Source of the DNA: an uncultured Candidatus Saccharibacteria bacterium
GTDB lineage: Bacteria; Patescibacteriota; Minisyncoccia; UBA11713; 2-01-FULL-45-33
Direction of reading: 5' to 3'
Length of the DNA: 64,000 bases
Assembly: GCA_964464405.1 (NCBI GenBank)
Contig: CAYXFX010000002.1
Location: 44,027-108,026, forward strand
A program made the translations under genes and the position numbers. The stretch's first letter is position 1. Each line of letters begins with the position of its first letter. Below, piece by piece: positions 9,645 to 50,832 of the stretch. Below the pieces are notes generated by a model, which searched no databases, had not been told where the DNA came from, and saw only the letters and a list, made by a program, of their open reading frames with translations.

Positions 9645-10045
9645 AATTTATAAGCTATATTATCAATCAAATAAGTTATTTTTACAAACAAAGGTTCTCT
9701 TCCAGAGATTTTTCTTCGCACCATCATAAAATCAGAGCCTATATTTTTAGCAAACAGCCCGTCCGTCAAAAATTTATCTCCTATTACAATCGTATTTTTA
9801 CTTTTTATTTCTAAATTTCCCAAAGCCGATCTCCACGGTTTTCTTTTGTTGCTTCCTTTGTTACTTAATATGTGGACCTCATTATTCCTTTTTAATTCCT
9901 CTATCTTATGTAAAACTACTTTGCTTATGTCTTTGTCTCCATCCGGGCGCAGGGTGCCATCAACGTCTAAAATGATACACGCTCCAGAAATCGCGCCGAT
10001 TTCCTCAAAAAATTGCGGGTTTTCTCTTTTTTCACTACCCAGCAT
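9620..10045 (-). CDS. HAD-superfamily subfamily IIIA (YqeG-type) phosphatase
   Basis: ILDVDGTL motif I, ILSNKGS motif II, and KRKP...VIGDKFLTDG motifs III and IV; 141 aa. Confidence 0.65.
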   Translation of the reverse strand: MLGSEKRENPQFFEEIGAISGACIILDVDGTLRPDGDKDISKVVLHKIEELKRNNEVHILSNKGSNKRKPWRSALGNLEIKSKNTIVIGDKFLTDGLFAKNIGSDFMMVRRKISGREPLFVKITYLIDNIAYKLWMAIKKY

Positions 10046-18046: not shown

Positions 18047-20047
18047 TTATTGCAACTCGCGCGTGGAAATTTGAGTTAAAACTTTCTTCGCCGCAGAAAC
18101 TGCGGTTAAAATCTTGCCGCTAAAAATTGAGTAGCAGCCGAATCCGTGCGAAACGACATCTGTTGGACGAGCATCCGTTTTTGCGGCAAATGTTTCCGTA
18201 GGAAGTATTACAAACATTGATTCAACATATTCGCAATCTTTCAAAACCGGAAACCACTTTAAACACCTCTCTTTCATTTTCAAAAAACGAGACTTTGGTA
18301 ATTTTTTAATTTCGTCCAAAGATAAACTTGTTTTGCCCTCAAAACTTTTATGCACGGATAAAGGAACGTCTCCTAACGTGTATAAATTTTTAGATTTCCC
18401 TACAGGAACAAGGGTCGCGAAAGGTCCGTCCATAATTGTAACAGCGCATTTATTTTTGGTACGCAACTTAACAACAGCGAGTTCTTTTAATCTGAAATTG
18501 AGTCTCTTTAAAGGAAAGCCGAGCCACAGGCAAAATTTATTATATCTCGCATATGTCGCGTTAATAATGTAGTCGAACTCTTTTTCCTTTTTTTTGCCGT
18601 TAGTAACCATTGAAAGAATTTTTTTTCCGTTCGCGTTAAGTTTTACAGACAATATTTCGGAATTCAAACTCATTTTTGTATTCCGGTTTTTTTTGAGTCG
18701 ATTTAGTATATATTTTTTTAAAATATTATAATCATAAACCGCTTCAGGGGTTAAAATGGAAAAATTTACAGTTTCTTTATTTAGAAATTCTTTTGGAGGA
18801 TATGCGTTTTTTTTCGGCAAATTGTTGTCCTTACAAACTTTCAAAAATTGGCCTTTTGTAACATTTGAGCCGTTTTTTGACACGCAATAAAAACTTGGGA
18901 AATCAGAGACTATTGAAGGGCCGTAAAAATTTTCAAAATCCTGCCTTTCCTCCTGAATTTCTTTTATTGTCTCTGGGCTTCTCGGATAATGGTATCCAAA
19001 ATGATGCCTATATTGATTAGCGCGCGTTGCTTCTTCAAAAATATTTTTATTTTTTTCAAACAACTCAACTTCGAATTTTTTTCCCAAAATTAAAGCTGTC
19101 GTTGTTCCAAAAATTCCTCCTCCGATAACGGCGATTTTCTGCTTTTTGGATAGAGCGCGGTTTGCGCTCTCTATAATTTCAATAATTCTTTTTCCAACTT
19201 TTCCGTCAGGATATTCCTTAACTACTCCGGAAACGGCGCCCAAAAACGCCTCAAGTTCCAGACGCAACGGTTCTTTTCTTTCAATAACTTTTTCTTTTTC
19301 TCTTCCGTTTTTCACTAAAATTATGGAGCTTTTTGCGTAGTCACAAACAACTTTTGACCCGTCCGATGAATTAAAGATGAGCTTTCTAATTTTATCTTTT
19401 CCCTTCCAGCCGATTTCTAAATTTGCGTCTACCCCGTTCAGATACCTCATTGAAACGTTTTTTAGGAAACTTGTGCCATTTGCCCAGATTTTTTCAGGAA
19501 ATCTTCCGAATAAAAAATCTAAAACATCAAAAAAATGGAGTTCTTCCAAGAAAGCTTCTTCGCCCTTGTGATAAGTTGCAATCGGGCTTGTAAACACGCC
19601 TTCCACGCTTAAAATTTTTGGAATTTTTCTAAGCATCATGTTAACTTTTTCAGTAGCGGGGTGGTATCTAAAAATATGCCCGACCATTAATATTTTTTTG
19701 TATTTTTGCGCTAAATCAATGAGTTCCTTTGCTTTTTTTGAGTTGTCTGCAATTGGTTTTTCAACAAAAACATGCGCGTACGAAAGGCTTTTTTTTACCA
19801 AATCAAAGTGGGTTTTGTAGGGCGTCACAATATCTACGCAGTCAACAGATTTTAATAAGTCAGGCTGCAACTTCAAAAATACTGGAACATTATATTTCTC
19901 CTTAATTTCTTTTTGAGATTCTTTTGTTTTCACAACAACTCCCTTAAGTTCAATTTTTTTGTCTTCAGCAAGAGCAAGAAGCACTCTTAGATGATTTTTC
20001 CCGAATCTTCCTGCACCAACTAATAAAATTTTCGGGAGCCGCTTCAT
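18047..20047 (-). CDS. Two-domain oxidoreductase: Gfo/Idh/MocA-like NAD(P)-binding domain fused to an FAD-dependent oxidoreductase (DAO-like) domain
   Basis: The N-terminus has KILLVGAGRFGKNHL...DIVTPYKTHFDLVKKSLSYAHVFVEKP (GFO_IDH_MocA). The middle has KIAVIGGGIFGTTTAL...ELFEKN (a FAD dinucleotide-binding GxGxxG motif). Single 666-aa ORF. Confidence 0.7.
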   Translation of the reverse strand: MKRLPKILLVGAGRFGKNHLRVLLALAEDKKIELKGVVVKTKESQKEIKEKYNVPVFLKLQPDLLKSVDCVDIVTPYKTHFDLVKKSLSYAHVFVEKPIADNSKKAKELIDLAQKYKKILMVGHIFRYHPATEKVNMMLRKIPKILSVEGVFTSPIATYHKGEEAFLEELHFFDVLDFLFGRFPEKIWANGTSFLKNVSMRYLNGVDANLEIGWKGKDKIRKLIFNSSDGSKVVCDYAKSSIILVKNGREKEKVIERKEPLRLELEAFLGAVSGVVKEYPDGKVGKRIIEIIESANRALSKKQKIAVIGGGIFGTTTALILGKKFEVELFEKNKNIFEEATRANQYRHHFGYHYPRSPETIKEIQEERQDFENFYGPSIVSDFPSFYCVSKNGSNVTKGQFLKVCKDNNLPKKNAYPPKEFLNKETVNFSILTPEAVYDYNILKKYILNRLKKNRNTKMSLNSEILSVKLNANGKKILSMVTNGKKKEKEFDYIINATYARYNKFCLWLGFPLKRLNFRLKELAVVKLRTKNKCAVTIMDGPFATLVPVGKSKNLYTLGDVPLSVHKSFEGKTSLSLDEIKKLPKSRFLKMKERCLKWFPVLKDCEYVESMFVILPTETFAAKTDARPTDVVSHGFGCYSIFSGKILTAVSAAKKVLTQISTRELQ

Positions 20048-20772
20048 ATATTTTCCGTGATATGCCCGATCAAATTTGGAGCATCTTTTTCAGGATAACG
20101 ATACGGTTTTTTGAATCTAGCAATAAATGCTATTTTTAGTAAACCGAATCCGCCCTTAATCATATTTGAAATCTTAATTTTGGATTCTCCCGCTTTCCTT
20201 TCGTTATGAGAAACCCAAACCTCGCAAACTTTAGCTCCACGAGCTCTTGCTATTGCGGGCAAAAAAACTTGAACTTGCCCCCAAAGTTCAAAATCTTTAA
20301 TAAATTTCGATTTATATGCTTTAAGTCCGCAACCAAAATCGTGAACGGTAACTCCTAATAAAATTCTGGAAATTAAATTTGCAATTTTTGAAAACAATAT
20401 TCTGGATGCCGGATCTTGGCGATTTTCTCTCCTTCCCACTACCGCGTCGCACCCCGAATCAATTTTCGTTAAGAGTTTAGGAATTTCCTCTGGTAAATTT
20501 TGCAAATCGGCATCAAGAAAAACAATGGCATCTCCTTTTGCTTCTTTTATTCCAACGTTTAGTGCTGGAGTCTGGCCAGAATTTTTCGCAAGAGTTATCA
20601 ACTTGAGAGGATTAAGTTCGCGTGCAACCATCTCGGTGTTATCATGCGATCCGTCGTTTACAAATATTATTTCGTAAGGACGGCCGTATTTTTCCATTAC
20701 GACTGTTATCCGCTGATGAAGTTCTTTTACTGTGCGCTCTTCATTATAAACAGGTACGACAATTGAAATCAT
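20044..20772 (-). CDS. Family 2 glycosyltransferase (polyprenyl-phosphate sugar synthase-like)
   Basis: ISIVVPVYNEE...EIIFVNDGSHDNT...FLDADLQN, with a C-terminal amphipathic/TM region. Confidence 0.85.
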   Translation of the reverse strand: MISIVVPVYNEERTVKELHQRITVVMEKYGRPYEIIFVNDGSHDNTEMVARELNPLKLITLAKNSGQTPALNVGIKEAKGDAIVFLDADLQNLPEEIPKLLTKIDSGCDAVVGRRENRQDPASRILFSKIANLISRILLGVTVHDFGCGLKAYKSKFIKDFELWGQVQVFLPAIARARGAKVCEVWVSHNERKAGESKIKISNMIKGGFGLLKIAFIARFKKPYRYPEKDAPNLIGHITENI

Positions 20773-20781
20773 ATTACTTAC

Positions 20782-21447
20782 TTATACTACCCTATTAATG
20801 TCTTCCGGCGAAGTAAAAGAAGGCCTGTTTTTTGCGATTACTGCCTTTACATTGTGTTCTTTTACAAATTTATTCATGAGCGACGTTAAATAATATTCAC
20901 CTGTCTCATGCTTTTCCGGAATGTAATTAAAAAGATCTGAATTTACAAGCATGAGCCCTCCTCCCCCCAAACTTGATTTCGGTTCCTGCGGCTTTTCTAC
21001 AATTTCAGTAATGAACCCTTCCGAAGACACCGTTACAATTCCGGAAGCCTTGGGATTTTCTACTTCCCAGCAAAGCCACGCAAATTCATTTTCAAGGCAT
21101 TTTTCAACATCGTTTTTTGAAATCAATTCGTCTGCATAAAAAATTAGAAATCTCTCCGCTTCGGTAAATAAATGCTTCGTAAGCAAAACGGCATTTCCGG
21201 TTCCCGAAAGCTCTTCTTGAACTATGTAGTGAATTTTTCTCCCTTTATAATTTTCTCCCAAGTATTCTTTGATTTTGTCGCCCATATAGCCGATGACGAG
21301 TATCGCTTCATTTATTTCTTCTGTAAGCGAATCAAAGATGTAGTCTAAAAAAGTTTTTTCGTTAAATTTTAAAAGCGGTTTAGGAACTTCATCCGTCAGA
21401 TGCCGCATTCTCTTTCCTCTACCTGCCGCCAGTATTATTGCCTTCAT
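20782..21447 (-). CDS. hddC: Sugar-1-phosphate nucleotidyltransferase; D-glycero-α-D-manno-heptose-1-phosphate guanylyltransferase (HddC-like)
   Basis: MKAIILAAGRGKRMRHLTDEVPKPLL NTP_transferase motif; 221 aa; clusters with gmhA, hddA and gmhB. Confidence 0.75.
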   Translation of the reverse strand: MKAIILAAGRGKRMRHLTDEVPKPLLKFNEKTFLDYIFDSLTEEINEAILVIGYMGDKIKEYLGENYKGRKIHYIVQEELSGTGNAVLLTKHLFTEAERFLIFYADELISKNDVEKCLENEFAWLCWEVENPKASGIVTVSSEGFITEIVEKPQEPKSSLGGGGLMLVNSDLFNYIPEKHETGEYYLTSLMNKFVKEHNVKAVIAKNRPSFTSPEDINRVV

Positions 21448-21548
21448 TCACATATTTTTAACTTTATTTTCTACTCCGTCAACTTGACGACTATAACTAA
21501 TAATGTAAATGTCACATAAGACCGTATCAGAAAGGATGTTCATGAATA

Positions 21549-22160
21549 TTGAAATCGCTGATTATTTCCGCTTTGATGTTCGGCTTGTGGCCGCTTGTGA
21601 TGCAAAAAAGCGAGCTCCCGGACACAACCAAGGCCTTTCTTTTGACTTCTGTCACAATCGTTGTGGTTGGTTTTGCATTTTTCGCGTTTATGTCCACAAA
21701 TAGTTTCCAAACCGCTGGCCAAGGGATTATAATCGCAGTACTAATTGCTAGTGTTGGCGGCGCAATGAATGGTTTTGGCACATTAAAATTTTTAGATGCT
21801 ACAAGCGCAGTTGCAAAAATAGATTTGGCAAAAGCCATTCTTACGATGATTTTAATGCAAGTTACAGCAAACGAACTCGGGGGGGATACTTCTTTACGGA
21901 TCTCCCATAACTTTGAAAAAGGTTGCGGGATTTATTTCCGCAGTCATAACTTTTTGTTTACTTGTTTTATAAAAAAACCGTCCGCGATTAGATCGGGGCG
22001 GTATTTTTTATTTGTTAAAAACACAGCGCTCAAAAAACCCGCTGATTTGCCTCCAGTCTGTAAAAACCTTGTAAGCGCCAGAGCAGTACAAATTCCTTAT
22101 TACTGTTTCGTCATCATACACTGGAATTCCGATGACCATAGAACCAGCCGCAACCCCTGA
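21549..22160 (+). CDS. Hypothetical small membrane protein. Doubtful: the 3' half is probably not coding.
   Basis: The first ~115 aa are hydrophobic (3-4 TM). The last 153 nt overlap the convergent HAD gene and translate to low-plausibility sequence. Confidence 0.3.
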   Translation: MKSLIISALMFGLWPLVMQKSELPDTTKAFLLTSVTIVVVGFAFFAFMSTNSFQTAGQGIIIAVLIASVGGAMNGFGTLKFLDATSAVAKIDLAKAILTMILMQVTANELGGDTSLRISHNFEKGCGIYFRSHNFLFTCFIKKPSAIRSGRYFLFVKNTALKKPADLPPVCKNLVSARAVQIPYYCFVIIHWNSDDHRTSRNP

Positions 22161-22709
22161 TTTGACTCCTCGCGGCGAATCCTCAAATACAACCTGTTCT
22201 GTCGGATCAATCCCCATGCGAGCAGATGTTTCCAAAAAACAGTCGGGGGCAGGCTTAGAATTTTTCACGTCAGTTAGTAAAACAATTTCATGAAGCATAA
22301 AAAGTTTTGCAAGTCCGGAATATTTAAGTAGCGCCAGACCACGTTCGAGTTCAACCGCCGTCCCTATGGATGTGCGATACCCCGCACATCTGATCTGTCC
22401 GAGGAACTCCAAGAATCTCGGCCGAGGCGATAAGTCCAAAGTTCTTAAAAGCTTGTCATAATGCAACCCTTTTCTTGCAAGAAATTCTTCCTGAGTTAAA
22501 TCCGGTTTTTTAGAAGCAAGAGAATAAATTTCTTGAATAATTTCTTTATCAGGCCCACCAATGAAGTGAGGCAATGTTTTAATGGCCTCTTTAAGCGTAA
22601 GACGCACCCCAATTTCTTCGGCGGCCATAAGCCACCCATTATGATGCGCAGGCTCCACATTTATCACAGTACCTTCTAAATCAAACGCCGCTCCCTTTAT
22701 CTGTGTCAT
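22008..22709 (-). CDS. HAD-superfamily hydrolase (β-phosphoglucomutase/phosphatase-like, subfamily IA)
   Basis: FDLEGTV motif I and VVFEDSPRGVKSGVAAG motifs III and IV; 233 aa. Confidence 0.7.
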   Translation of the reverse strand: MTQIKGAAFDLEGTVINVEPAHHNGWLMAAEEIGVRLTLKEAIKTLPHFIGGPDKEIIQEIYSLASKKPDLTQEEFLARKGLHYDKLLRTLDLSPRPRFLEFLGQIRCAGYRTSIGTAVELERGLALLKYSGLAKLFMLHEIVLLTDVKNSKPAPDCFLETSARMGIDPTEQVVFEDSPRGVKSGVAAGSMVIGIPVYDDETVIRNLYCSGAYKVFTDWRQISGFFERCVFNK

Positions 22710-22791
22710 CTTGCAAACCCCCTTCTTAAACTAACCAAAAACTATCAAAAAAAAGAAACAATGTCAAGCGTTAACAGGTTTTATTTCTAAT

Positions 22792-23547
22792 ATGGAGCAG
22801 CCGCAATATTTAGCGATGTACAACATGGAGCGCGATCATTGGTGGTTTCGCGGAAGGCGGAAGATACTGCATTCATGCCTAAAAACACACTCTCCCGTTA
22901 AAAGAAATAATGCCTTAGACATCGGCTGCGGTACAGGATTTAACGCGGCCTTGCTTTCAAACTTTGCAAAAAAAGTCGCTGGGCTTGATTTTTCGGACAC
23001 CGCTTTGGAGCTTGCGCGCAAAAGCAATCCGAACCTCACTTTAATTAAAGGCGCTTTTCCGGATTATAAAACTGGCGAAAAATATGAAATGATCACGTTG
23101 CTTGACGTTTTGGAGCATATTGACGATGACGCTAGAGCAATTAAACGGGTTGAAGAACTTTTGGCTCCCGGAGGGATTGCATTAATTACAATTCCTGCTT
23201 ACAAATTTTTATGGACAGAGCACGACGCGCTACTTCATCACAAGCGAAGATACACTAAGGCAGATGTCCTTAATCTAATTTCAAAAAATACATGCCTTAG
23301 CGTAAAAAAGGTAAGTTATTTTAACGCATTCATGTTTTTTCCAATTTTATTTTTTAGATTTATCAGAAAAGTTTTCCGCTTAAAAGAAGGAAATTCAGAT
23401 TTTTTTATGTTGCCCAAGCCATTAAATAATATTCTTGAAAAAATTTTTTCCTGGGAAGCACAAGCACTGCAATTCATCAATTTTCCCTTCGGAGTTTCAA
23501 TTATGGTTTTGCTGAAAAAAGAGTCGGCGTCTACTAAAGAAAGCTGA
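22792..23547 (+). CDS. Class I SAM-dependent methyltransferase
   Basis: ALDIGCGTGFNAALL motif I and LAPGGIALIT motif III. Confidence 0.8.
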   Translation: MEQPQYLAMYNMERDHWWFRGRRKILHSCLKTHSPVKRNNALDIGCGTGFNAALLSNFAKKVAGLDFSDTALELARKSNPNLTLIKGAFPDYKTGEKYEMITLLDVLEHIDDDARAIKRVEELLAPGGIALITIPAYKFLWTEHDALLHHKRRYTKADVLNLISKNTCLSVKKVSYFNAFMFFPILFFRFIRKVFRLKEGNSDFFMLPKPLNNILEKIFSWEAQALQFINFPFGVSIMVLLKKESASTKES

Positions 23548-23671
23548 TGTCTCTTCACTTTCCTCGCTCGCTCCGGCGCGGCTCGCTCAGGGTTTCGCGC
23601 TTCGCTCTTTTTGCTTCGCAAAAAACCAAGCCCGCTTCGCGCTCAAAACCCGCTCAGAAACATCAGCTTTC
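23539..23671. repeat. GC-rich ~133-bp palindromic repeat element, intergenic copy A, with perfect 12-bp terminal inverted repeats
   Basis: GAAAGCTGATGT (23539-23550) and ACATCAGCTTTC (23660-23671) flank a GC-rich core in an AT-rich genome. The core is about 70% identical to 27001-27138 (shared blocks CTTTCCTCG..TCCGGC, CTCAGGGT, GCTTCGCAAAAAACC, AAACCCGC). Confidence 0.7.
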
Positions 23672-23677
23672 TTTAAA

Positions 23678-25111
23678 TTACCAATATGTATAAAACAAAA
23701 CCTGCATAAATATGATTTGAAAAAATAACATGGAAAGAACAGAAGAAAAGTCGTCATCGCTTAAAGTTCTCCCTGAATAAATAACCGGCAAAATAAAAAG
23801 CGGAGTTATAAATAGCCAAATCCGCTCAATTTCTCCTTGGAATATGCCGACTAATAGAAAAATTGCGAGCATAAAAAATCCGACTAAATAGGGCCATAAT
23901 TTTTCTCTAAATATATTCCTGACATTTTTTAAAATAAGATAAATATTGGCAAATCCCAAATAAATGCAAAAAGCCGCCAAGTTTATAAAAAAATAAATAA
24001 AATATATTCTAATTGATTCGAAGTTGCTGCTAACCGTTTCCGCGTTGGATTTATAAGAATCAAAAAAATCATTAATCACCGAATATCCTGCCCAAAGCTT
24101 AAGCGCTAAAAAAAATAAAATAAATCCCAAAGCCGCAAAAACAGCCCTTGCGAAAGTTTTAAAATTATTTTGCGAAAAATTAAAAAGTGCGTAAATAATA
24201 AGCAATAAATATAAAGGTGTGAGCAGCAAAAAAAGGAAATTTGAAAAAAGCGAAAACCCCGCTAGTACCCCTCCCGCGAAAGCCAAAATGAGATTTTTTT
24301 TAACGCCAAAGTAAATTAGCACAAACGCAATAAATGAGAAAAACAAAAACGTCGTTTCCATCGAAGTCGCGCTAAACATAAGGAAACTCGGAACAAGCGC
24401 GAAAATCTGAATTCCGCGCCTTGCTTCTGCTTCACTGGCAAATTCGCACAATAAATAGTAAAGTAGGAAAATAGTAAGACCCCCAAGCATTACAACTAAT
24501 AGGGATATGCCGGCTAAATTTGGCCAAGAAACTTTTTGAAAAGCGTAAAGTATTAAAGAATACCCGGGTGGGTGCCAACGGCTATGAAGCGCAAGCTGGA
24601 GTTTGAGATTCGAATAGTCTTTTATAAAATCCTGCGCGCTTGTAATAAGCGGCAAATTACCAGAATATTCCCAGCGAGTGCGGGTAAACGGTTCATAAAC
24701 GCCGTAAAATCCCTCGCGTATTGCCGCAATACTAACCGCAAGAAAAACAAATATTATATAAAGTGTAAGTAAAAATTTAAAAGTTGAAAAATTTTCTATC
24801 CGCTTCCTAAAATAAATAAATATTAAAAAAATAAAAAATGCGGCCGAAAACCAAAAATATCCCGATGTTTTAGGTGAGAAAATCGCATAAAAAATTAAAC
24901 GGTCGGGAATATAACCTTTGTAAAAAAAAGAAATAAAAGCTTTAAGTAAAGAAAAAAAAGAAACGAGTCCCAAAACCAAAAAAAATAAGCGCCGCGAAAA
25001 AACATTTTTCTTAAAATAAAAAAAATACCAAAAAGTAAATATGACGGAAAATATAAATAACGTAACAATTCCCCAAAAAGCAATTACGAGCTTCGGCCCT
25101 GAAATATCCAT
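23678..25111 (-). CDS. Polytopic membrane protein, probable GT-C-type (PMT_2/ArnT-like) glycosyltransferase
   Basis: 477 aa and very hydrophobic. The loop motif ..HSRWHPPGYSLILY.. resembles the KPPL motif of PMT_2/ArnT. It is paired with a divergent GT2 gene. Confidence 0.55.
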   Translation of the reverse strand: MDISGPKLVIAFWGIVTLFIFSVIFTFWYFFYFKKNVFSRRLFFLVLGLVSFFSLLKAFISFFYKGYIPDRLIFYAIFSPKTSGYFWFSAAFFIFLIFIYFRKRIENFSTFKFLLTLYIIFVFLAVSIAAIREGFYGVYEPFTRTRWEYSGNLPLITSAQDFIKDYSNLKLQLALHSRWHPPGYSLILYAFQKVSWPNLAGISLLVVMLGGLTIFLLYYLLCEFASEAEARRGIQIFALVPSFLMFSATSMETTFLFFSFIAFVLIYFGVKKNLILAFAGGVLAGFSLFSNFLFLLLTPLYLLLIIYALFNFSQNNFKTFARAVFAALGFILFFLALKLWAGYSVINDFFDSYKSNAETVSSNFESIRIYFIYFFINLAAFCIYLGFANIYLILKNVRNIFREKLWPYLVGFFMLAIFLLVGIFQGEIERIWLFITPLFILPVIYSGRTLSDDDFSSVLSMLFFQIIFMQVLFYTYW

Positions 25112-25817
25112 AGTTATACCAGTTTATAACGATGAAGCAGCAATCGGCAAGAGCTTGCGTTTGCTTACCGATTTCATAAATTTAGGCGGTCTAAATGCCG
25201 AAGTTTTAATAATTAATGACGGGGGCAAAGACAAAACTCTGGAAACCGTAAAAAATGAAATGCAAAAATTCCCTTTTATTAAATTAATCGATAGAAAAAA
25301 AAATAAAGGAAAAGGTTTTACAGTAAGAGAAGGTTTTGGCGCAGCCCAAGGAGATATTATTTTGTTTACTGACGCCGATCTTCCGTACGGAACAAAATAT
25401 TTCGAAAAATTCATTGAAGCAATTAATTCTGGCGCAGATTTAGCTATCGCAAATAGAAATCTTTTAAAATTCATGAAAGAAAAGAAAAGCCCCGGACTCT
25501 TGCGCACTCTAAACCATTGGGGTACAATATTTTTTGTAAAAATGCTGCTAGGCCTTCCCTTTTCAGACACTCAAGCGGGACTTAAGGGAATAAAAAAAGA
25601 AGCGGCGATGCGCCTCCTTCCTAAATTAACTATTGATAGGTATGCTTTCGATCTTGAACTTTTGGTAGCCGCCAAAAAATCAAATTTCAAAATTGCTGAA
25701 ATTCCCGTAGCGCTTGAAAATGTCGGATCCTCACACATCAATATTTTGCGCGACACTCTCGAAGCCCTGCGCGACGCTCTTAAAATCTGGTGGAGAATGA
25801 GAAAAAATTTATATTGA
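25041..25817 (+). CDS. Family 2 glycosyltransferase (dolichyl/polyprenyl-phosphate glucosyltransferase-like)
   Basis: ISIVIPVYNDE...VLIINDGGKDKT...TDADLPYG. Confidence 0.85.
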   Translation: MTENINNVTIPQKAITSFGPEISIVIPVYNDEAAIGKSLRLLTDFINLGGLNAEVLIINDGGKDKTLETVKNEMQKFPFIKLIDRKKNKGKGFTVREGFGAAQGDIILFTDADLPYGTKYFEKFIEAINSGADLAIANRNLLKFMKEKKSPGLLRTLNHWGTIFFVKMLLGLPFSDTQAGLKGIKKEAAMRLLPKLTIDRYAFDLELLVAAKKSNFKIAEIPVALENVGSSHINILRDTLEALRDALKIWWRMRKNLY

Positions 25818-25853
25818 AAATATTATCTAAAAAAAGACTAGCGGAGTCTCAAA

Positions 25854-25895
25854 AAGCATTCCAACTTTACGCGATCGCGTAAAGTTGGAATGCTT
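25854..25895. repeat. 42-bp perfect palindrome with GCGATCGC (HIP1-like) core; bidirectional terminator-like
   Basis: AAGCATTCCAACTTTACGCGATCGCGTAAAGTTGGAATGCTT, followed by a T-run. It is intergenic between convergent or adjacent genes. The core CAACTTTACGCGATCGCGTAAAGTTG recurs at 63179-63202 and 63782-63807. Confidence 0.7.
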
Positions 25896-25981
25896 ATTTT
25901 TATTTTTTCTTTTTTCTGAAATTTACCACTTGGTGCGCTATAGCATGTTATGTTGCATTTTAAATATTTAGATCATTTCAT

Positions 25982-27613
25982 TTAATTGCTTTTGTACAGC
26001 ACGTAATGCCCTTCGTTTTTGAGAAGAGTATATTTTGTTTTTAGATCATTTTCAAGATCCGGGAAAAGGGTCGGATAGTCCTCTTGCGTTACAACATAAG
26101 AATACATTTTTCCGTTTTCTGTTAAAGAGTTCCTGCCAAAATATAATACCGGATTAATTTGGAGAAATTGATAAATCTGAAAATCATTAAGCAAATATGC
26201 GACGCTGGGAGCATTAATGATTAGTATTTTAGAATCTTTAGGCAAGGCGTTTGAAATATAATCTGAAATTTTTTGTGCGTCATTTGAATAATATAGCAGT
26301 GAATATCTTTGATTAAATGTGAAAACCAGCTGGAACAGAAATATAAATATAATTGCTGCTTGCGCGGCTTTAATGTAATTAAAACTAGTTATTACTTTAG
26401 GAACTTTAAAAATTAATTTCTTTTTTGAATTTAAATCTACCAGCTTTTTTTCAATATTTTTTAGTATGTAAGTAATAGACGCAGGAAACGTAAGAAAAAG
26501 CAGAAGATGTGCTGGGAAAAAATAACGGTACCAACCTGGTGTTTTTAAATAAAAAATAAGTGTAAAAATCGTAAAAATAAATAAAATTGACTCTGTTTCC
26601 TGAACTTTTTCTTTTTTTATTTTTTTGATAATTAAAAACAAAATAAATGCAGAAAAAAGAACTGTGAAATGGATAGGAGTTGATTCCTTAAAAAACCTCA
26701 CTATATTTTGCAAAATAAGTTCAATTAAATTTTGCGAGGCATATGAGTTTGAGTAATAACCGAAAGCGCTAATAAGCCCCCCTGCTGAATACTCGGAAAG
26801 AATCGTATATAGCCAAAAAATCATAGGGGACAACGCGCCTGCGGCGATTAAAAACAGGCGCTTACATAAATTATTTAAATCTCGCCATCCGTAAATTATT
26901 TCTGCAATAAAAACTGAGGCAGGAACAATCAAAAAAAACGGTTTTGTCGCTGCCGAAAGACCAATGAACAAACCCGCAAAAAACAGGTGCCGATTGAAAA
27001 CAACCCGAGCAGTGTTTTTGCTTTCCTCGTTCCGGCCAGCGCCGGAACTCAGGGTGGAAGCTTCGCAATTTTTCGCTTTGCGAAAAAACCGTGCTTGCTC
27101 GCTTCCAAACCCGCAAAAATGCTCTCGGTTTGTTTTCTTGGGACAGAGCTCAAGCAAAATAAGCGCCGCCAGAAAATAAAATAAACCCGGAATTTCTCCT
27201 AATAAATTTTTTCCGTTGCCATAAAATGGAGTAAAACTTATGATTAGCGCGACACTCATTATCGCCAGCGTTATTCCATACATTTTTTTTACAAGAAAAT
27301 ATGCAGAAATTGTAAATAGAAATAAAAACACAACCATCGGATATCTTGCTGCCAAAATTGTATTTCCGAAAATTTTAACTGAAAGCGCAGAAGGCAAAAG
27401 CGCAGGATAATTTGAAGTTATTAAAAATTGCCTTGTTTCTACGTATTCTCCGGGGGCGGTGCCCAAGCTAAATACTCCGTCGCTCACTAAACTTTTTATT
27501 ATTCCTAAATTAATCCCCTCATCAAACCATGTAGCCGGGCTTGCGGAAAGATGCCACGTGCTAAATACGGCTAAAATTATAAAAAGTAAAATTATAATTA
27601 TTTTATTTTGCAT
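25982..27613 (-). CDS. GT-C superfamily membrane glycosyltransferase (PMT_2/ArnT-like) carrying an in-frame repeat-element insertion
   Basis: N-terminal multi-TM region with the loop ..WFDEGINLGIIKSL... A hydrophilic, GC-rich-encoded segment (KKTNREHFCGFGSEQARFFRKAKNCEASTLSSGAGRNEESKNTARVVF) interrupts the TM core; its DNA (27001-27138) is a copy of the 23539-23671 element. Confidence 0.75.
   Translation of the reverse strand: MQNKIIIILLFIILAVFSTWHLSASPATWFDEGINLGIIKSLVSDGVFSLGTAPGEYVETRQFLITSNYPALLPSALSVKIFGNTILAARYPMVVFLFLFTISAYFLVKKMYGITLAIMSVALIISFTPFYGNGKNLLGEIPGLFYFLAALILLELCPKKTNREHFCGFGSEQARFFRKAKNCEASTLSSGAGRNEESKNTARVVFNRHLFFAGLFIGLSAATKPFFLIVPASVFIAEIIYGWRDLNNLCKRLFLIAAGALSPMIFWLYTILSEYSAGGLISAFGYYSNSYASQNLIELILQNIVRFFKESTPIHFTVLFSAFILFLIIKKIKKEKVQETESILFIFTIFTLIFYLKTPGWYRYFFPAHLLLFLTFPASITYILKNIEKKLVDLNSKKKLIFKVPKVITSFNYIKAAQAAIIFIFLFQLVFTFNQRYSLLYYSNDAQKISDYISNALPKDSKILIINAPSVAYLLNDFQIYQFLQINPVLYFGRNSLTENGKMYSYVVTQEDYPTLFPDLENDLKTKYTLLKNEGHYVLYKSN
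27001..27138. repeat. GC-rich palindromic repeat element copy B, inserted in-frame within a CDS
   Basis: Imperfect terminal inverted repeats (CAACCCGAGCAGTGT and its near reverse complement AATGCTCTCGGTTTG), an internal palindrome TTCGCAA..TTGCGAA, and about 70% identity to copy A. Confidence 0.65.
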
Positions 27614-28925
27614 AAAAATTTTTTAATGCAAACATAAATAAAAATGGCGAAAGAGGCAGCATATACCTGCTCATATCCGCTCCGATCCCAAGTGCACCCA
27701 GAGATACAGCATTTACCGCGAGTATTGATATAAAAAGCGAAGACCAAAAAATAATTTTTCTATCAAAAAATCCAATTAAAGACAAAAAATATGTTACGTA
27801 CCAAAAAAAACCTCCGATTAAAGCAAGCAATGTAATTATATTGCCCAAGTAACTCTCAAAAATCTGCGGAAATTTCGGGCGAATAACGTATTCTGAAAGA
27901 TATTTATAAGGATTTTTAAATAGAGATTTAATGACGAGCGACGAATGAAATTTTATATATTCCAGCGGATTTTCTTTAAATATTTTCCAAAAATGTTCTT
28001 TATAATAAGGAACTAGCGCAAAATCATAATTTGAAATATCTTTTCTGGGATATCCCGAAGGCGCTTCGGGGCGCGGCAAAATAAATCCTTTTTTATCCGC
28101 ATATTGGCTCGTTACATTTCCATAAAGATTATACCAAGACGCGCTTGTTAACTCCCAAGTGTTAAAAACAATTTTATTTCGCAGCATCCAAGGGAATAAG
28201 ATCGCAAAAAAAATAATAATACTAACCGCCCCGACCTTAAGGTCGTGGCTCCAAGGAAAAATTATTTTTTCATAGGTTAACTCAGACGAGGAATTGTTGT
28301 TTATCATTTCTTCTTTCCGCTTACTATAAAACCTCCAAACCATTGCAAGCAGGAATAACGGGAAAAGATAAAATCCTACCGATCTTGTAAGAGTCGCGAG
28401 CCCAAAAATAAATGAAAACAAAAAATATCTTTTTAAAACAAATAAATAAAAACTTAGAATAAACAAGAACGCGTAGAGATAATCAGACATCAAAAGATTG
28501 TTCCAGTAAATCGACATCGGCTCAACGGAAACAACGAGAGCTGAAAAAAGCCCTACTTTTTTTGAATCAAAAATTAAAAAACCCATTTTATAAATTAAAA
28601 TAACAGTAAATCCGGCAATAATGTTTTGAAAAAAAATAACTAAAAAAAGAGGAAGGCGCGCCCACAAAACTCCTGCGATAAGCAAAATATATAACGGCGG
28701 CCTATAAGCGTCGGGCATGTAGGGAGCATCGGTGTTTAAACTAAAAACGCCGTGGTTTATTAAATTTTCAGCACTTCTTAAATAAAAAGAAAATGCATCG
28801 GAATACGCCAAAAATCCCTCGCCCCCGAATTTTATCTGCACAAAAAGCGCGTAAAGAAATCTGATTCCGAATGCCGTCAAAAAAAGAAAAGTTTCAATTT
28901 TGTGTTCTTTTAAAAATCTAGTCAT
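27603..28925 (-). CDS. GT-C superfamily membrane glycosyltransferase (PMT_2/ArnT-like)
   Basis: 440 aa with the motif [17 protein letters not shown] in the first extracytoplasmic loop and about 11 TM segments. Confidence 0.75.
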
Positions 28926-29617
28926 CCCAAAATATTAAAACGTAAAATTGCCCAAACTGCGGCGAGTCCATCTTTCCAGTCGATTTTTTTTCCTTCCGCA
29001 TAAGTGCGGCCGCTATACGAAATTCCAACTTCATAAACTCGTAGTTTTGCGCGGGCAATTCTTGCCGTTATTTCTGGTTCAATCCCAAAACGGTTGCTTT
29101 TTAAATTATCACGTATAGCAAGAAGCGCTTTTCTATTAAAAGCCTTATATCCTGTTTCCATATCAGTTAAGTTTAAATCTGTGAATATATTTGAAAATGT
29201 CGTAAGTAATTTATTCCCGACATAATGCCAAAAAAAGAGAACTCTGTGGGCGGAAGCTCCCATAAAACGCGATCCATATACAACATCTGCTTTGCCATCG
29301 AGCAATGGTTTTAAAAGTAAATTATATTCACTAGGATCATATTCTAAATCCGCGTCTTGAATTATTGCAAAATCGCCCGAGCATTCTTTAAATCCTCTTC
29401 TGATTGCGGCCCCTTTGCCCATATTTTTTTCTTGATAAAAAATTTTATATTTTTGTTCCAAATTTTTTAACACGTCGCGCGTGCCGTCCCGAGATCCGTC
29501 ATCAATAATTATTATTTCTTTTTCCAAATCGCAAGCGTCTGCTCGCAAAATAGCATCCACTATCTTATGAATAGTGGTTTTTTCATTATATGCTGGAATA
29601 ATTACCGAAAGCTTCAT
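28922..29617 (-). CDS. Family 2 glycosyltransferase (polyprenyl-phosphate sugar synthase-like)
   Basis: [11 protein letters not shown]...[12 protein letters not shown]...QDADLEYD; translationally coupled to the upstream GT-C gene (4-nt overlap). Confidence 0.85.
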
Positions 29618-29659
29618 CTCTGGATTATAAAATAAATTTCAGATATAGTACAGATTATA

Positions 29660-31270
29660 ATGGACAAAAAGATCTTGATAGTCCTTGTGCTCGCTTTTGT
29701 TTTGAGGCTCGCGGGAATCGCTTACGGGCTGCCACTCTGGCTGATAGATGACGAGCCGCCTTTTATTTTAGGCGCTCTTAAAATGATGGAATTAAAAACA
29801 TTACTCCCTAACTCCCATTTTGAAGAATTTAAAACCGTACTTTATTACCCGCCATATTTGTCTTATCTCTATTTGCTTCCATTTTCTCTGCTTGTGGGCA
29901 TTAAATATTTATTTTTTTCGGGCTCCACAGAACTTTTTACTTCATATTTACTAGCGGATCTTTCCGGTTTTTTTATTATCGCAAGATTTTTTTCTATATT
30001 CGCTGGAGTGTTTTCTATTTATTTTACATACGCTACCGCGAGAAATTTATTTAGAAACAAAAAGCCAGCAGTTTTTTCCGCAATACTAGCCAGCACAAGT
30101 TTAATTCATATTTCTTTATCCATAGTAAGCAGACATTGGATCTGGGTTTTTTTATTTACTTCTTTAGTATTATTTTTTCTCTCGCAACAAAATTGGAGTT
30201 TTAAAAAGAAATATTTTCTTGCATTTTTATCTGCAGGCATCGGAATAGGATTCGCAGTTATTAACGTCATCCTAACTGGACTCATACTTTCGTGGTATTT
30301 ACTTTATGAAAAAAATTCAACTTTTAAACTTATCAAAGAAAAATATTTTTATTTATTATCGGCTATTTTTATTTTTTTAGCTTCTCTTCCCTACCTTCTT
30401 TATAAAGGAAGCCTGGGATTTACTGCGGATGTCACAACTAAGGTATCAAAAAATATTTCGGGGGCTATTTTTTCTCCTTTTAACTTCGCGTATACAATTT
30501 TTCAATCCGAATTTATACTTATAATATTCGCGGCATTCGGCTTTTATTTTGTTTTTAGAAACAAAAGGAATATTTTTTGGGCTTTTGGCATATATATTTA
30601 TACCGTTAGTACAGTTTTTTACATAATATTCCGTTTTGAACCGCGCTTTTTTATGGCGCTGCTTCCATATTATTTGATTTTAGCAGGATACGGTTTATGT
30701 GAACTGCAAAATAAAATTAAAAATAAATATTTATCTGAAGCTCTGCTGATTTTTTTGATAGTTCCAATGATATTTTCTTTTAGACTATCAGCTCTTGCTT
30801 TTAAAAATGACACCAGGGTTTTGTTAAGAAACTGGGCTCAAAAGAATTTACCTCAAAAGACTAAAATATTAGTTAATGCGCGCCTTACAAGATTTCCGAC
30901 CACCAAAGAAGCCGTCTCTGAACAGCAAAAAATTGATCCCACTTCGGTGAGAAAAATCGACAAAGCAGAGGCAGAGTTAAACTACTCGAATCTGCATTCT
31001 TTGAATATTTTTGACGCAAATAATAAATTATTTTTTGAAAATATAGATAAATATATCAAAGAAAACAAATATGAATATGCCGCGATCAGCCCCGGGTATA
31101 GGCATAGCGAATTTTTTGAGAACGTGCTAAAAAAAGGAATACTGCTAAAAAGTTTTAGCGGAGGAAAATCGGAAATGTCTATTGCGGAAAGCCAATTTTT
31201 TAAAAACCCGTTTGAATTATTTAAGATTAAAGAACTCGGTCCTGAAATTAAATTATATAAAATAAACTAA
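29660..31270 (+). CDS. GT-C superfamily membrane glycosyltransferase (PMT_2/ArnT-like)
   Basis: 536 aa with the loop motif WLIDDEPPFILGAL...YYPPYLSYLYLL and a multi-TM core plus a C-terminal soluble domain. Confidence 0.7.
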   Translation: MDKKILIVLVLAFVLRLAGIAYGLPLWLIDDEPPFILGALKMMELKTLLPNSHFEEFKTVLYYPPYLSYLYLLPFSLLVGIKYLFFSGSTELFTSYLLADLSGFFIIARFFSIFAGVFSIYFTYATARNLFRNKKPAVFSAILASTSLIHISLSIVSRHWIWVFLFTSLVLFFLSQQNWSFKKKYFLAFLSAGIGIGFAVINVILTGLILSWYLLYEKNSTFKLIKEKYFYLLSAIFIFLASLPYLLYKGSLGFTADVTTKVSKNISGAIFSPFNFAYTIFQSEFILIIFAAFGFYFVFRNKRNIFWAFGIYIYTVSTVFYIIFRFEPRFFMALLPYYLILAGYGLCELQNKIKNKYLSEALLIFLIVPMIFSFRLSALAFKNDTRVLLRNWAQKNLPQKTKILVNARLTRFPTTKEAVSEQQKIDPTSVRKIDKAEAELNYSNLHSLNIFDANNKLFFENIDKYIKENKYEYAAISPGYRHSEFFENVLKKGILLKSFSGGKSEMSIAESQFFKNPFELFKIKELGPEIKLYKIN

Positions 31271-32070
31271 TGAAAATAATTGTAGTGATCCCGACGTACA
31301 AAGAAGCGGGAGAGATCGGAAAAGTTATAGATGCTTTATGCGGACCAGTTTTTAAAGCAATTCCCAACCACGAAATGGGCATTTTAGTTGTAGACGGAAA
31401 TTCACCCGATGGAACTGCAGAAATTTTAAGAGAGAAAAGTATTTTCTATCCTAATCTCTACTTTTTGATTGAACCAAAAAAACGCGGAATCGGAGTCGCA
31501 TACATTGAAGGAATAAAATACGCGATAAAAGAGTTGGGGGCTGATGCAATTATAGAATTTGACGGAGATGGACAGCACAACCCAAAAGATGTCGTCAGAT
31601 TGGTAACAGAATTTGACAACGGACATGATTATGTTATCGGTTCTCGATACGTTCCGGGCGGAGCGATTCCCGCAGAGTGGTCGCTTCATAGAAAACTGCT
31701 AAGCCGTTTTGGCAGCTTGACTGCGCGCGCGGTTCTTAATCTACCTACGCGCGACAATACTTCGGGATTTAAACTTTCGCGCGTCGCGGGTTTCGCGGAA
31801 AATTTGCCGCTGGACGAAAATAAAATACTTTCAAAATATTACGCTTATAAAATCCACTTCCTTTATAATATGATTTCGATGGGCGCTAAAACAAAGGAAA
31901 TTCCTATTGTTTTTTTAGAGCGCAAATCCGGCTCATCCAAAAGCACTTTCCGCGATATTTACGATTCATTGCGAGTGGTGTTTGCGCTTAAATTTAGAAG
32001 GAAAAAATATCAAGTTTTTCCAAATAAAAAAACCGGAGAGAATTTATCTCAACCGGCGATAAAATTATAA
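31270..32070 (+). CDS. Family 2 glycosyltransferase, dolichol-phosphate-mannose-synthase (Dpm1)-like
   Basis: KIIVVIPTYKEAGEIGKVI...VVDGNSPDGT...GDGQHNP; its start overlaps the stop of the preceding GT-C gene. Confidence 0.85.
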   Translation: MKIIVVIPTYKEAGEIGKVIDALCGPVFKAIPNHEMGILVVDGNSPDGTAEILREKSIFYPNLYFLIEPKKRGIGVAYIEGIKYAIKELGADAIIEFDGDGQHNPKDVVRLVTEFDNGHDYVIGSRYVPGGAIPAEWSLHRKLLSRFGSLTARAVLNLPTRDNTSGFKLSRVAGFAENLPLDENKILSKYYAYKIHFLYNMISMGAKTKEIPIVFLERKSGSSKSTFRDIYDSLRVVFALKFRRKKYQVFPNKKTGENLSQPAIKL

Positions 32071-32522
32071 ATCGGCCATGGCAGTAAACGCAAAGGAATC
32101 TCGCGAAGAAAATAGAGAAAACGAGATCGCGTAAACCACTGAAACGATTTTCTGTTGAAAAGAGAAACTCCGCAAAAAAAGAAATGTTTATCGTAAGTTG
32201 TTGAAAAGCCAAACCTTTCCAAATCTCTGCAACAGCGTTTGGAATGGCATGGAGCGGCGACCACCAATACATTTTTCCATCCATTTTTATTGGCAAGATT
32301 CACAAAAAACTTAACGAACCTTAACGTAGTGTAGTTCTCCTCGGGCGTCAAATAAAAAATATTGTCTTGGTAAGTTTCCGATTCTGGCAGTGCGCCTTCG
32401 GCAATAACTAAAATGTTATAAATACTTCCCAGATAAGCTGCCCTTTTGATCAGCAACTTGTTTGATTCAAGTTCGGGAGGAAGGCCAAATGCAAAAACTG
32501 CAACAACGTCATATTTTTTCAA
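32049..32522 (-). CDS. Hypothetical protein, tentatively DUF218/YdcF-like
   Basis: 157 aa; weak resemblance to the YdcF VVTS.YHMPRA motif (VLVVAAPCHSKRC). Confidence 0.35.
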   Translation of the reverse strand: MKKYDVVAVFAFGLPPELESNKLLIKRAAYLGSIYNILVIAEGALPESETYQDNIFYLTPEENYTTLRFVKFFVNLANKNGWKNVLVVAAPCHSKRCCRDLERFGFSTTYDKHFFFCGVSLFNRKSFQWFTRSRFLYFLREIPLRLLPWPIYNFIAG

Positions 32523-38534: not shown

Positions 38535-38554
38535 TAAATTATTTAATTAAAACA

Positions 38555-50801: not shown

Positions 50802-50832
50802 AAAAAAGCGGAGCTAAACCGCTTTTATTATC
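50802..50832. terminator. Bidirectional terminator hairpin
   Basis: AAAAGCGG-agctaaa-CCGCTTTT between convergent genes. Confidence 0.5.

Follow-up and report, generated by a model that had tools for sequence, protein, structure and literature searches.

Repeated GT2/GT-C gene modules in a putative cell-surface glycan locus of an uncultured member of the Patescibacteria

Background

The gene arrangement considered in this report, in which genes for GT2 glycosyltransferases adjoin genes for polytopic membrane proteins of the GT-C type, has its closest described counterparts in the Firmicutes, where Bacillus subtilis, Lactococcus lactis and Listeria carry adjacent GT-A/GT-C pairs, several per genome, with a shared flippase that is not linked to them (PMC8035078). 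The systems that we have used for comparison are CsbB/YfhO/GtcA, YkcC/YkcB and YkoT/YkoS of B. subtilis, CsdAB, CsdCD and CsdEF with CflA of L. lactis, and GacI/J/K/L of Streptococcus pyogenes (PMC8035078, PMC10821137). We describe here a locus from an uncultured bacterium of the Patescibacteria (Candidate Phyla Radiation, CPR) that lies in a stretch of 64,000 nt of contig CAYXFX010000002.1 (assembly GCA_964464405.1, positions 44,027 to 108,026), which was analysed as a whole and is called the window below; genes are cited by the lower of their two window coordinates, and both ends are given in Table 1. The likeness to the Firmicutes systems lies in the repetition of adjacent GT2/GT-C pairs in single-membrane bacteria, the Firmicutes GT2 making a C55-P-sugar and the GT-C decorating wall polymers outside of the cell. 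There are also differences. The Firmicutes pairs are dispersed, whereas three to five predicted modules stand side by side in the one locus described here; CsbB and GacI are membrane proteins, whereas the GT2s of this locus lack transmembrane (TM) helices; and its GT-C proteins do not belong to the YfhO family.

Two other groups of systems have the same three-step logic or a similar pairing of enzymes. The first comprises ArnC/ArnT (GT2/GT83), which serves the addition of aminoarabinose to lipid A, and the phage-encoded GtrA/GtrB/GtrC, which serves O-antigen glucosylation. ArnC is the described enzyme most similar to GT2 20044, and ArnT is among the best structural matches of 29660 and 27603; however, ArnC has two TM helices before which GT2 20044 stops, no ArnT-like gene adjoins the latter, the ArnE/F and GtrA flippases of those systems were not found in the window, and the organism is not expected to have lipid A. 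The second group consists of actinobacterial Ppm1/Pmt (GT39), PpgS, and eukaryotic and archaeal DPM1 with PMT, ALG or AglJ-type enzymes, in which a GT2 like dolichyl-phosphate mannose (DPM) synthase is paired with a PMT_2/GT39-like GT-C. GT2s 31270, 25041 and 28922 are anchor-less like the Ppm1 domain and human DPM1, and their GT-C partners show a DE motif in loop 1, but sequence identity to the Ppm1/Pmt and DPM1/PMT enzymes is low, ALG12, ArnT and STT3 are closer structurally than the PMTs, and neither mannose as the sugar nor protein as the acceptor is indicated here.

A further kind of system, the three-component pentofuranose systems, combines a polyprenyl phosphoribose synthase, a phosphatase, an epimerase of the short-chain dehydrogenase/reductase (SDR) type, a MATE flippase and a GT-C of family GT136 (PMC11127046). 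These systems and the mycobacterial decaprenyl-phosphoarabinose (DPA) pathway can be likened to the upstream part of the present locus, in which a phosphoribosyltransferase gene is followed by genes for a small HAD phosphatase, an SDR and GT-C-like proteins; the differences are that a MATE or SMR flippase is missing from the window, that GT2 and methyltransferase genes are interleaved, and that the upstream GT-C-like proteins have no detected relation to GT136 or Emb/Aft. A literature search on CPR bacteria or Parcubacteria with GT-C enzymes or glycosylation found nothing relevant, and to our knowledge almost nothing has been established experimentally about the cell envelopes of the Patescibacteria. 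These bacteria attach to other cells and rely on interactions at the cell surface.

Three GT2/GT-C modules in a glycan locus

The window encodes NusG, FtsZ, FtsA, SecD and a class II ribonucleotide reductase, which mark it as bacterial, and has a G+C content of ~37%; homologues of the locus proteins come nearly all from Candidatus Giovannonibacteria and other Patescibacteria/CPR lineages. We assign the genome to the Giovannonibacteria, as that of a groundwater bacterium with very little DNA. Between position 1 and ~42,000 almost all genes are glycan-related. They include genes for a DegT aminotransferase, SDR dehydratases/epimerases, methyltransferases, a transaldolase, a UbiA-family enzyme, a heptose set (GmhA, GmhB and a GHMP kinase), five GT4 domains, an AsnB amidotransferase and a surface protein with LTD and PKD domains, and this part of the window is probably a large cell-surface glycan locus, the core of which is formed by the 12 kb described next. 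By family assignment, ~32 kb of it carry about six predicted lipid-phosphate-sugar synthases and seven GT-C-like proteins.

Within 12 kb of this region there are three GT2/GT-C modules and one orphan GT2. The first module is a divergent 1:1 pair (23678 and 25041), the second an operon of one GT2 followed by two GT-C genes (28922, 27603 and 25982, in the order of transcription), and the third a 1:1 operon (29660 followed by 31270). A preliminary description of this DNA had counted four pairs; its open reading frame (ORF) coordinates and all of its overlaps were reproduced, and the count becomes three modules, as GT2 20044 adjoins a nucleotidyltransferase gene and has no adjacent GT-C. Throughout, the GT2 and GT-C genes of a module are coupled genetically in that they overlap or adjoin each other. 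The overlaps amount to 4 nt at 28922-28925, 11 nt at 27603-27613 and 1 nt at 31270, and at their 5' ends the divergent genes 25041-25817 (+) and 23678-25111 (-) share 71 nt. This last overlap is real: the N-terminus concerned is conserved, and a divergent overlap of 29-53 nt is also found at the corresponding place in four Giovannonibacteria loci (L002, L005, L007 and L040). Shorter reading frames were considered and rejected for both genes, as 25041-25817 has no other start codon before the first beta-strand and the long N-terminus of 23678-25111 is conserved in homologues. Because the 5' ends overlap by 71 nt, each promoter must lie in the coding region of the other gene. The divergent starts at 29617 and 29660, between the second and third modules, are only 42 nt apart.

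GT2 proteins of the lipid-phosphate class

The GT2s of this region clearly belong to the DPM1/ArnC/GtrB class as judged from their sequences, which agrees with the type first proposed for them. Pfam PF00535 matches 20044, 25041, 28922 and 31270 strongly (E 1e-22 to 3e-34). In searches of PDB sequences the top match of GT2 20044-20772 is ArnC (9hwj, E 7e-39, residues 2-207 against 10-220 of 322), and for 25041, 28922 and 31270 the Pyrococcus furiosus DPM synthase (DPMS, 5mlz) is best among the solved structures, with E 1e-18, 1e-18 and 1e-21 (residues 1-240), respectively, followed by ArnC and GtrB (GtrB E 3e-12 for 25041-25817). Of the NCBIfam models, those for ArnC, AglJ, PgfS, PpgS and dolichyl-phosphate hexose transferase score highest. 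A DxD motif, which in 20044, 25041, 28922 and 31270 has the form DAD (as in 20044-20772 and 25041-25817) or DGD, is present in all five GT2s, the fifth being 7877 in the upstream part of the locus, and so is a second motif, D-x-x-x-G-[FLY]-K, which reads DFGCGLK in 20044-20772, DTQAGLK in 25041-25817 and DFTCGFK in 7877-8617, the other two forms being DMETGYK and DNTSGFK. We take D-x-x-x-G-[FLY]-K/R to be the post-catalytic interface-helix motif of the DPM1/GtrB/ArnC class; the ordinary GT2 encoded at 35556-36386 is without D-x-x-x-G-[FLY]-K. The QxxRW motif of processive synthases is absent from all five proteins, which contradicts a placement among such enzymes; the processive reading was further rejected on the grounds that there is no TM domain and that matches to PgaC, NodC and BcsA are confined to the N-terminal portion (the first ~90-110 residues). 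The activity predicted for the five proteins, which are 24-33% identical to one another (32% for 7877-8617 and 25041), is the formation of polyprenyl-P-sugar from a nucleoside diphosphate (NDP)-sugar.

The orphan ArnC-like GT2 of 242 aa has an informative relative. In a related Giovannonibacteria contig (L089, 3080-4018) an ArnC-like GT2 of 312 aa, which has room for TM helices of the ArnC type, directly adjoins a membrane protein like 23678, and the comparison suggests that the window protein is a truncated or anchor-less derivative whose partner has been relocated.

Membrane partners and the GT-C fold

The four membrane proteins of the modules are related to one another at a level that simple sequence searches do not reach: BLAST detects no significant mutual similarity, single-sequence phmmer searches against PDB sequences gave no match, and the four are linked only through profile-profile and fold comparisons. 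With Pfam PMT_2 (PF13231, gathering score 26.1) 29660-31270 scores 28.1, 25982-27613 24.6 and 23678-25111 23.6, and 27603-28925 has no Pfam match, while some homologues of each of the four pass PMT_2 in precomputed annotation. Each has 6-11 hydrophobic segments (~9 TM helices in 25982-27613), and a loop of 60-80 residues follows TM1 in 29660, 27603 and 25982, its equivalent in 23678 following TM4. The GT-C partners had originally been credited with a loop of the PPLY type. A PP(L/G/Y)Y motif does open the PMT_2 region in three of the four (YYPPYLSY, YRPPLY and HPPGY); 25982-27613 is without it and has NYPALLP at that place.

The case is most complete for 29660-31270, among whose 119 homologues several are labelled "glycosyltransferase family 39" and in which D31, E32 and P65 are invariant (54/54 sequences). 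Its AlphaFold (AF2) model has a predicted local distance difference test (pLDDT) score of 95.1, and the first 31 Foldseek matches of this model in the PDB are all GT-C proteins, with ALG12 best (5e-8), ArnT at 9e-7, and STT3, AglB, PglB, ALG9, AftD, Pmt4, DPY19 and Emb among the others; there is also a weak match to PF02366 (PMT, E 3e-4). The model of 27603-28925 (pLDDT 93.8) likewise finds only GT-C-fold proteins in its first 29 PDB matches (STT3, PglB, ArnT, Pmt1/2, ALG proteins and PIG-U, probability 1.00). In profile comparison by hhalign this protein matches the 29660 family at 97.4% (E 1e-11), its D43 (41/41) and E135-P136 are invariant, and some of its homologues carry PF13231 or PF09594. 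In 25982-27613 a W-x-D-E-G sequence stands directly after TM1, the aspartate (D31) being conserved in 17/17 homologues and the glutamate (E32) in 15/17, and the orthologues in L003 and L004 have stronger, precomputed PMT_2 matches. For 23678-25111, PMT_2 matches 17 of the 41 members of the family (best E 1.5e-7), comparison with the 29660 family by hhalign yields 57% (E 1e-4), H180-P-P-G183 is invariant, and D70 and E148 are conserved in at least 90%. The original assignment of all four as GT-C partners thus holds for 29660, 27603 and 25982, which have conserved acidic residues in loop 1 and, in the case of 29660 and 27603, a GT-C fold in predicted models; 23678-25111, the weakest case of the four, is probably a GT-C by its sequence signals.

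The gene 25982-27613 carries an in-frame palindromic insertion on its minus strand (26984-27151, ~168 nt) that adds ~50 residues to a loop. Its G+C content is 52% as against ~35%, and its predicted fold has -68.5 kcal/mol (z = -4.3). Compared with that of the L007 orthologue, the insertion shows 91% nucleotide identity (core ~97%), though the proteins are only ~55% identical, and it occurs also at the orthologous site in L089; most orthologues are without it. It resembles the in-frame palindromic elements of Rickettsia, but is not multicopy here: a mobile repeat was rejected, as searches of the window and of 88 loci gave no second copy apart from the orthologous sites. The core has only one exact match in metagenomes of the Joint Genome Institute (JGI), and the insertion matched no Rfam family.

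An upstream paralogue family and a predicted lipid-linked pentose pathway

Three further polytopic proteins (3783, 5500 and 12960), with ~34% mutual identity and without a match in Pfam, are encoded upstream. They had been listed as unknown paralogues belonging to the same system, and the present analysis bears this out through a profile match to GT-C and fusions to GT2 and GtrA domains. The family is widespread (568 representative clusters); although its profile found nothing meaningful among PDB sequences, it aligns by hhalign with the 29660 family (87%, E 4e-6, 347 columns) in such a way that its DE motif falls on the GT-C DE motif. Among the best 150 of the 568 representatives, which were surveyed for fusions, eight have N-terminal extensions: six GT2 domains, one methyltransferase and one GtrA/DPMS TM domain. 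The closest window relative of the fused GT2 domains is 7877-8617 in four of the six (33-55% identical), 31270-32070 in one (34%) and, weakly, 28922-29617 in one (30%), and the fused methyltransferase (N-terminus of P0259) is closest to 22792-23547, to which it is 32% identical over the full length. These fusions tie the paralogue family independently to lipid-linked sugar metabolism and because of them a topology with the N-terminus inside and the DE loop outside can be proposed. On these alignments we regard the paralogues as a candidate new GT-C family. In the window, GT2 7877-8617 heads a string of genes in which it is followed by a methyltransferase gene and two GT-C-like genes.

The same part of the locus encodes what would be a sixth synthase of lipid-linked donors, the UbiA-family protein 10035-10901, which exceeds the NCBIfam cutoffs of NF008977 (256 bits, cutoff 234) and NF008978 (226 bits, cutoff 207) and matches DPPRS of Mycobacterium tuberculosis (8j8j) with E 5e-40. 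Between its gene and that of the SDR protein 8598 sits the small ORF 9620-10045 (Pfam Hydrolase_like 30.9 bits against a gathering score of 22 bits; NCBIfam HAD-IIIA 42 bits). By these family matches, 8598-10901 looks like a pathway for a lipid-linked pentofuranose donor similar to those reported by Kelly et al. 2024, in which SDR 8598-9644 would be a candidate for the epimerase acting on the lipid-linked pentose, by analogy with ORF13 (PMC11127046).

Gene linkage across genomes

The modules are conserved as units in related genomes, as had been supposed. A linkage survey of GTDB species representatives recovered 78 loci, all from Patescibacteria, of which 70 could be evaluated. In 29 of these 70 a GT2 like 31270 lies immediately downstream of a GT-C gene like 29660 on the same strand, mostly with an overlap of 1 or 4 nt, and in seven more the two lie within 6 kb. 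The entire arrangement is kept in a Giovannonibacteria contig at ~55% protein identity, and likewise in one JGI contig. A Harrisonbacteria contig keeps the counterparts of 29660 and 31270 and has, in addition, a string of a 28922-like GT2, a 27603-like gene and a gene for a PMT_2 protein. The adjacency of a GT2 and a 27603-like gene is kept in L002, L003, L005 and L014, and in L006, L009 and L014 one GT2 gene stands upstream of the 27603-like gene and another upstream of the 25982-like gene, from which it appears that the modules have been reshuffled while remaining linked to a GT2.

A proposed mechanism and its alternatives

We consider it quite likely that the locus encodes several multi-component transmembrane glycosylation modules of the GtrB/GtrC, CsbB/YfhO, ArnC/ArnT or Ppm1/Pmt kind. 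The proposal is based on the families and folds assigned to the proteins, on their conserved motifs, on the linkage of their genes in different species and on naturally occurring fusions of GT2 and GT-C-like proteins, and extends to enzymatic activities, a lipid carrier, sugars, flipping and an acceptor, which we infer. In a first step, the GT2s (20044, 25041, 28922, 31270 and 7877), as soluble or peripheral proteins, would work on the cytoplasmic side of the membrane and load polyprenyl monophosphate with the sugar of an NDP-sugar; in a second, a flippase would turn the lipid-linked sugar across the membrane; and in a third, the GT-C proteins (29660, 27603, 25982, probably 23678, and the three upstream paralogues) would transfer the sugar on the outside, by means of the Asp/Glu of loop 1, to a wall glycopolymer or surface protein. 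Several different lipid-linked monosaccharides would presumably serve as donors. The site of action had been given as periplasmic or extracytoplasmic; only the latter term is apt, as the CPR cell presumably has a single membrane.

Several observations weigh against this proposal. The equivalog cutoffs of NCBIfam lie far above the scores of all the GT2s (ArnC 149 of 529 bits for 20044-20772, AglJ 124 of 325 for 28922-29617, PpgS 56 of 370, PgfS 56 of 500), so that no sugar can be assigned to them. A hydropathy scan found no TM helix in any of the five GT2s, whereas ArnC, GtrB and the P. furiosus DPMS have them, and the alignments to ArnC and DPMS end before the membrane anchors of those enzymes; a C-terminal anchor is, however, not universal in the class, human DPM1 and the Ppm1 catalytic domain also being without one. 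Among the membrane proteins, the Foldseek E value of 27603-28925 is only ~4e-3, and 23678-25111 has no invariant acidic residue, its GT-C status coming from sub-threshold sequence signals. The more distant orthologues of 29660 are followed, in place of the GT2 gene, by one for a GT4 or AsnB. Finally, scans of the window ORFs with Pfam and NCBIfam found no flippase of the GtrA, Wzx/MOP, MATE, SMR, ABC or ArnE/F types.

The missing flippase does not refute the proposal, because in the Firmicutes the flippase is often shared and not linked to the GT-A/GT-C pairs (PMC8035078), and by analogy with CflA and GtcA a shared flippase is probably encoded outside of the window. Within it the candidates are limited to the frameshifted ORF 21549 and an EamA-like protein of 137 aa and five TM helices (50828-51241, minus strand, near rplK and nusG), whose Pfam match (E 1.4e-5) is below the gathering score. 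The latter is the sole small transporter of the drug/metabolite transporter (DMT) type seen in the window, and a weak, unlinked candidate.

A different scheme, which is documented in lactococci (PMC10821137), would have some of the GT2s make a polyprenyl-monophosphate-sugar primer, as do WpsA/WpsB or GacI, for extension by the cytoplasmic GT4/GT2 enzymes encoded at 32631-40855, the flipped oligosaccharide then being polymerised or ligated as a whole by the GT-C proteins (cf. WpsH/WpsJ). We regard this as possible, if somewhat unlikely. It draws on the setting of the locus, in which five GT4 domains, one ordinary GT2 and an AsnB-type amidotransferase are encoded directly downstream, with conserved synteny in L002-L004, as well as on the GT4 or AsnB genes that directly follow the distant 29660 orthologues; neither an initiating phosphoglycosyltransferase nor Wzy or Wzx turned up in the window. 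Because the GT4 block adjoins and no initiating phosphoglycosyltransferase is found, some of the GT2s may prime oligosaccharides on polyprenyl monophosphate in the way of WpsA and GacI. On the other hand, five distinct GT2s and seven GT-C-like proteins exceed the need of one primer and one ligase, and tight 1:1 translational coupling and GT2::GT-C-like fusions are better suited to pairs of a donor synthase and a transferase. Priming and transmembrane glycosylation by GT2/GT-C modules are mutually compatible, and priming may hold for some of the modules.

The modules could also serve protein O-glycosylation, the GT39/PMT_2-like enzymes, especially 29660-31270 with 31270-32070, glycosylating Ser/Thr residues of secreted or surface proteins in parallel to actinobacterial Ppm1/Pmt and streptococcal PgfS/PgfM, with pilins, S-layer proteins or the LTD-PKD protein 40871-42415 as candidate acceptors. 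This differs from the preferred proposal in the acceptor only, and we think it unlikely. Labels of homologues at NCBI ("glycosyltransferase family 39 protein"), the weak PF02366 match, the presence of Pmt4 and Pmt1/2 among the structural matches and of PgfS among the best NCBIfam matches of the GT2s, and the secreted LTD/PKD protein and SecD that flank the locus are in keeping with it; ALG12, ArnT and STT3 nevertheless outscore the PMTs structurally, the locus is rich in genes of the polysaccharide type, and no acceptor sequence evidence was obtained. That there is no lipid-linked pathway at all, the GT2s being ordinary Leloir GT-A enzymes acting on a cytoplasmic glycan, the adjacencies those of a generic polysaccharide locus, and the membrane proteins non-catalytic or unrelated (transporters, or like O-antigen ligases or polymerases), would fit the sub-cutoff scores and missing TM anchors of the GT2s and the fact that two of the four membrane proteins fall below the Pfam threshold and one has no match, but is very improbable in view of GT2 matches that consistently favour lipid-phosphate enzymes over the full catalytic domain and interface region, GT-C folds in high-confidence models, conserved loop-1 acidic residues, conserved adjacency, and fusions to GT2 and GtrA domains.

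On the preferred proposal the mechanism is an ordinary and known one; it is its density that is unusual for a small genome, and this is a divergent instance from an unstudied phylum, with anchor-less GT2s and, as far as sequence comparison indicates, an undescribed GT-C-like family. A bolder view, which we offer tentatively and think rather unlikely in its entirety, is that this reduced-genome CPR bacterium gives over a single ~40-kb locus to extracytoplasmic glycosylation, drawing on up to six different lipid-linked donors and on seven GT-C-like transferases, and that three of these transferases would be the founding members of a new GT-C family in CAZy. If so, the GT2::GT-C and GtrA::GT-C fusions would join the synthesis or flipping of a donor to its transfer in a single polypeptide and could be a minimal, tractable model for the handover of lipid-linked sugars across a membrane. 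The locus implies that Giovannonibacteria and many of their relatives decorate their surface by the lipid-carrier logic that also serves teichoic acid, O-antigen, lipid A and protein O-mannosylation, with a set of modules that is unusually large for genomes of this size, and it allows specific proteins to be named as candidates for new GT-C families, for polyprenyl-phosphate GT2s without TM helices and for naturally occurring GT2::GT-C fusions. Its value would lie mainly in giving access to the envelope biology of CPR bacteria and to the enzymes in which a GT2 is fused to a GT-C-like protein, extending a known mechanism without adding a new one.

Neighbouring genes and other features

Table 1. 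Features of the locus, with window coordinates and the match or observation on which each assignment is based
Feature	Start	End	Strand	Basis or remark
GT2, DPM-synthase/GtrB-like predicted polyprenyl-phosphate sugar synthase	25041	25817	+	PF00535 E 2e-23
Polytopic membrane protein, ~11 TM, probably divergent PMT_2-type GT-C	23678	25111	-	PMT_2 E 6.7e-5, sub-gathering
GT2, AglJ/DPM-synthase-like predicted polyprenyl-phosphate sugar synthase, first gene of operon	28922	29617	-	PF00535 E 3e-34
GT-C fold membrane protein (predicted), all-helical, no soluble C-terminal domain	27603	28925	-	AlphaFold model and Foldseek
GT-C (PMT_2-like), last gene of operon	25982	27613	-	PMT_2 E 3e-5, below gathering score
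GT-C (GT39/PMT_2-like) with C-terminal alpha/beta domain	29660	31270	+	PMT_2 28.1 bits, above gathering score
GT2, DPM1/PpgS-like predicted polyprenyl-phosphate sugar synthase	31270	32070	+	PF00535 E 1e-22
GT2, ArnC-like predicted polyprenyl-phosphate sugar synthase, orphan	20044	20772	-	PF00535 E 3e-31
Fifth GT2, polyprenyl-phosphate class	7877	8617	-	PF00535 E 6e-29
GT-C-like paralogue 1, among heptose-pathway genes	12960	14783	-	hhalign against 29660 family
GT-C-like paralogue 2	5500	7224	-	Same family
GT-C-like paralogue 3	3783	5543	-	Same family
Predicted polyprenyl-phosphate phosphoribosyltransferase (UbiA family), sixth lipid-linked donor synthase	10035	10901	-	NF008977, 8j8j
Small HAD phosphatase ORF, 141 aa, candidate phosphoribose 5-phosphatase	9620	10045	-	Hydrolase_like 30.9 bits
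SDR-family epimerase/dehydratase, candidate lipid-linked pentose epimerase	8598	9644	-	PF01370 E 3e-38
Bidirectional intrinsic-terminator-like hairpin, 19-bp stem	25854	25895	.	Between convergent GT2 25041 and GT-C 25982
Sugar-1-phosphate nucleotidylyltransferase	20782	21447	-	PF00483 E 5e-25
Small hydrophobic ORF, speculative flippase/accessory candidate	21549	22160	+	Interrupted by G7 run 21879-21885
HAD-family hydrolase, beta-phosphoglucomutase-like, sugar-phosphate metabolism	22008	22709	-	PF13419 E 4e-16; TIGR02009 92 bits
S-adenosylmethionine (SAM)-dependent methyltransferase	22792	23547	+	PF13489 E 7e-16

The nucleotidylyltransferase 20782-21447, which probably supplies the NDP-sugar for the adjoining GT2 20044, had been labelled hddC; in NCBIfam it scores higher with the archaeal GlmU-type (157 bits) and AglF (120) models than with HddC (87, cutoff 300), and that label is not retained. 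The same adjacency of an NTP-transferase and a GT2 gene is found in L002 and L003. At the place of the HAD gene 22008-22709, L002 has a GT2 like 7877-8617.

The ORF 21549, which neither Pfam nor NCBIfam matched, continues into the convergent HAD gene. With one G fewer in its G7 run it would encode a clean protein of 140 aa and ~5 TM helices that ends near 21970, just before a hairpin. An assembly error was rejected as the cause of the frameshift, the G7 run being identical in four independent assemblies, and possible readings of the ORF are a pseudogene, a site of frameshifting or a gene subject to phase variation.

Directly downstream of the ArnC-like GT2 20044, and syntenic in L002, is a gene (18047-20047, minus strand) for a fusion protein of 666 aa that combines a NAD-dependent sugar dehydrogenase of the GFO/IDH/MocA type, similar to UDP-GlcNAc (uridine diphosphate N-acetylglucosamine) 3-dehydrogenase (125 bits), with a DAO-type FAD oxidoreductase; the fusion protein is possibly involved in modifying the sugar that GT2 20044 carries. 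On the other side of the region, an ORF of 157 aa with no family match (32049-32522, minus strand) overlaps the 3' end of GT2 31270 by 22 nt and is kept at the same position in L002 with 50% identity.

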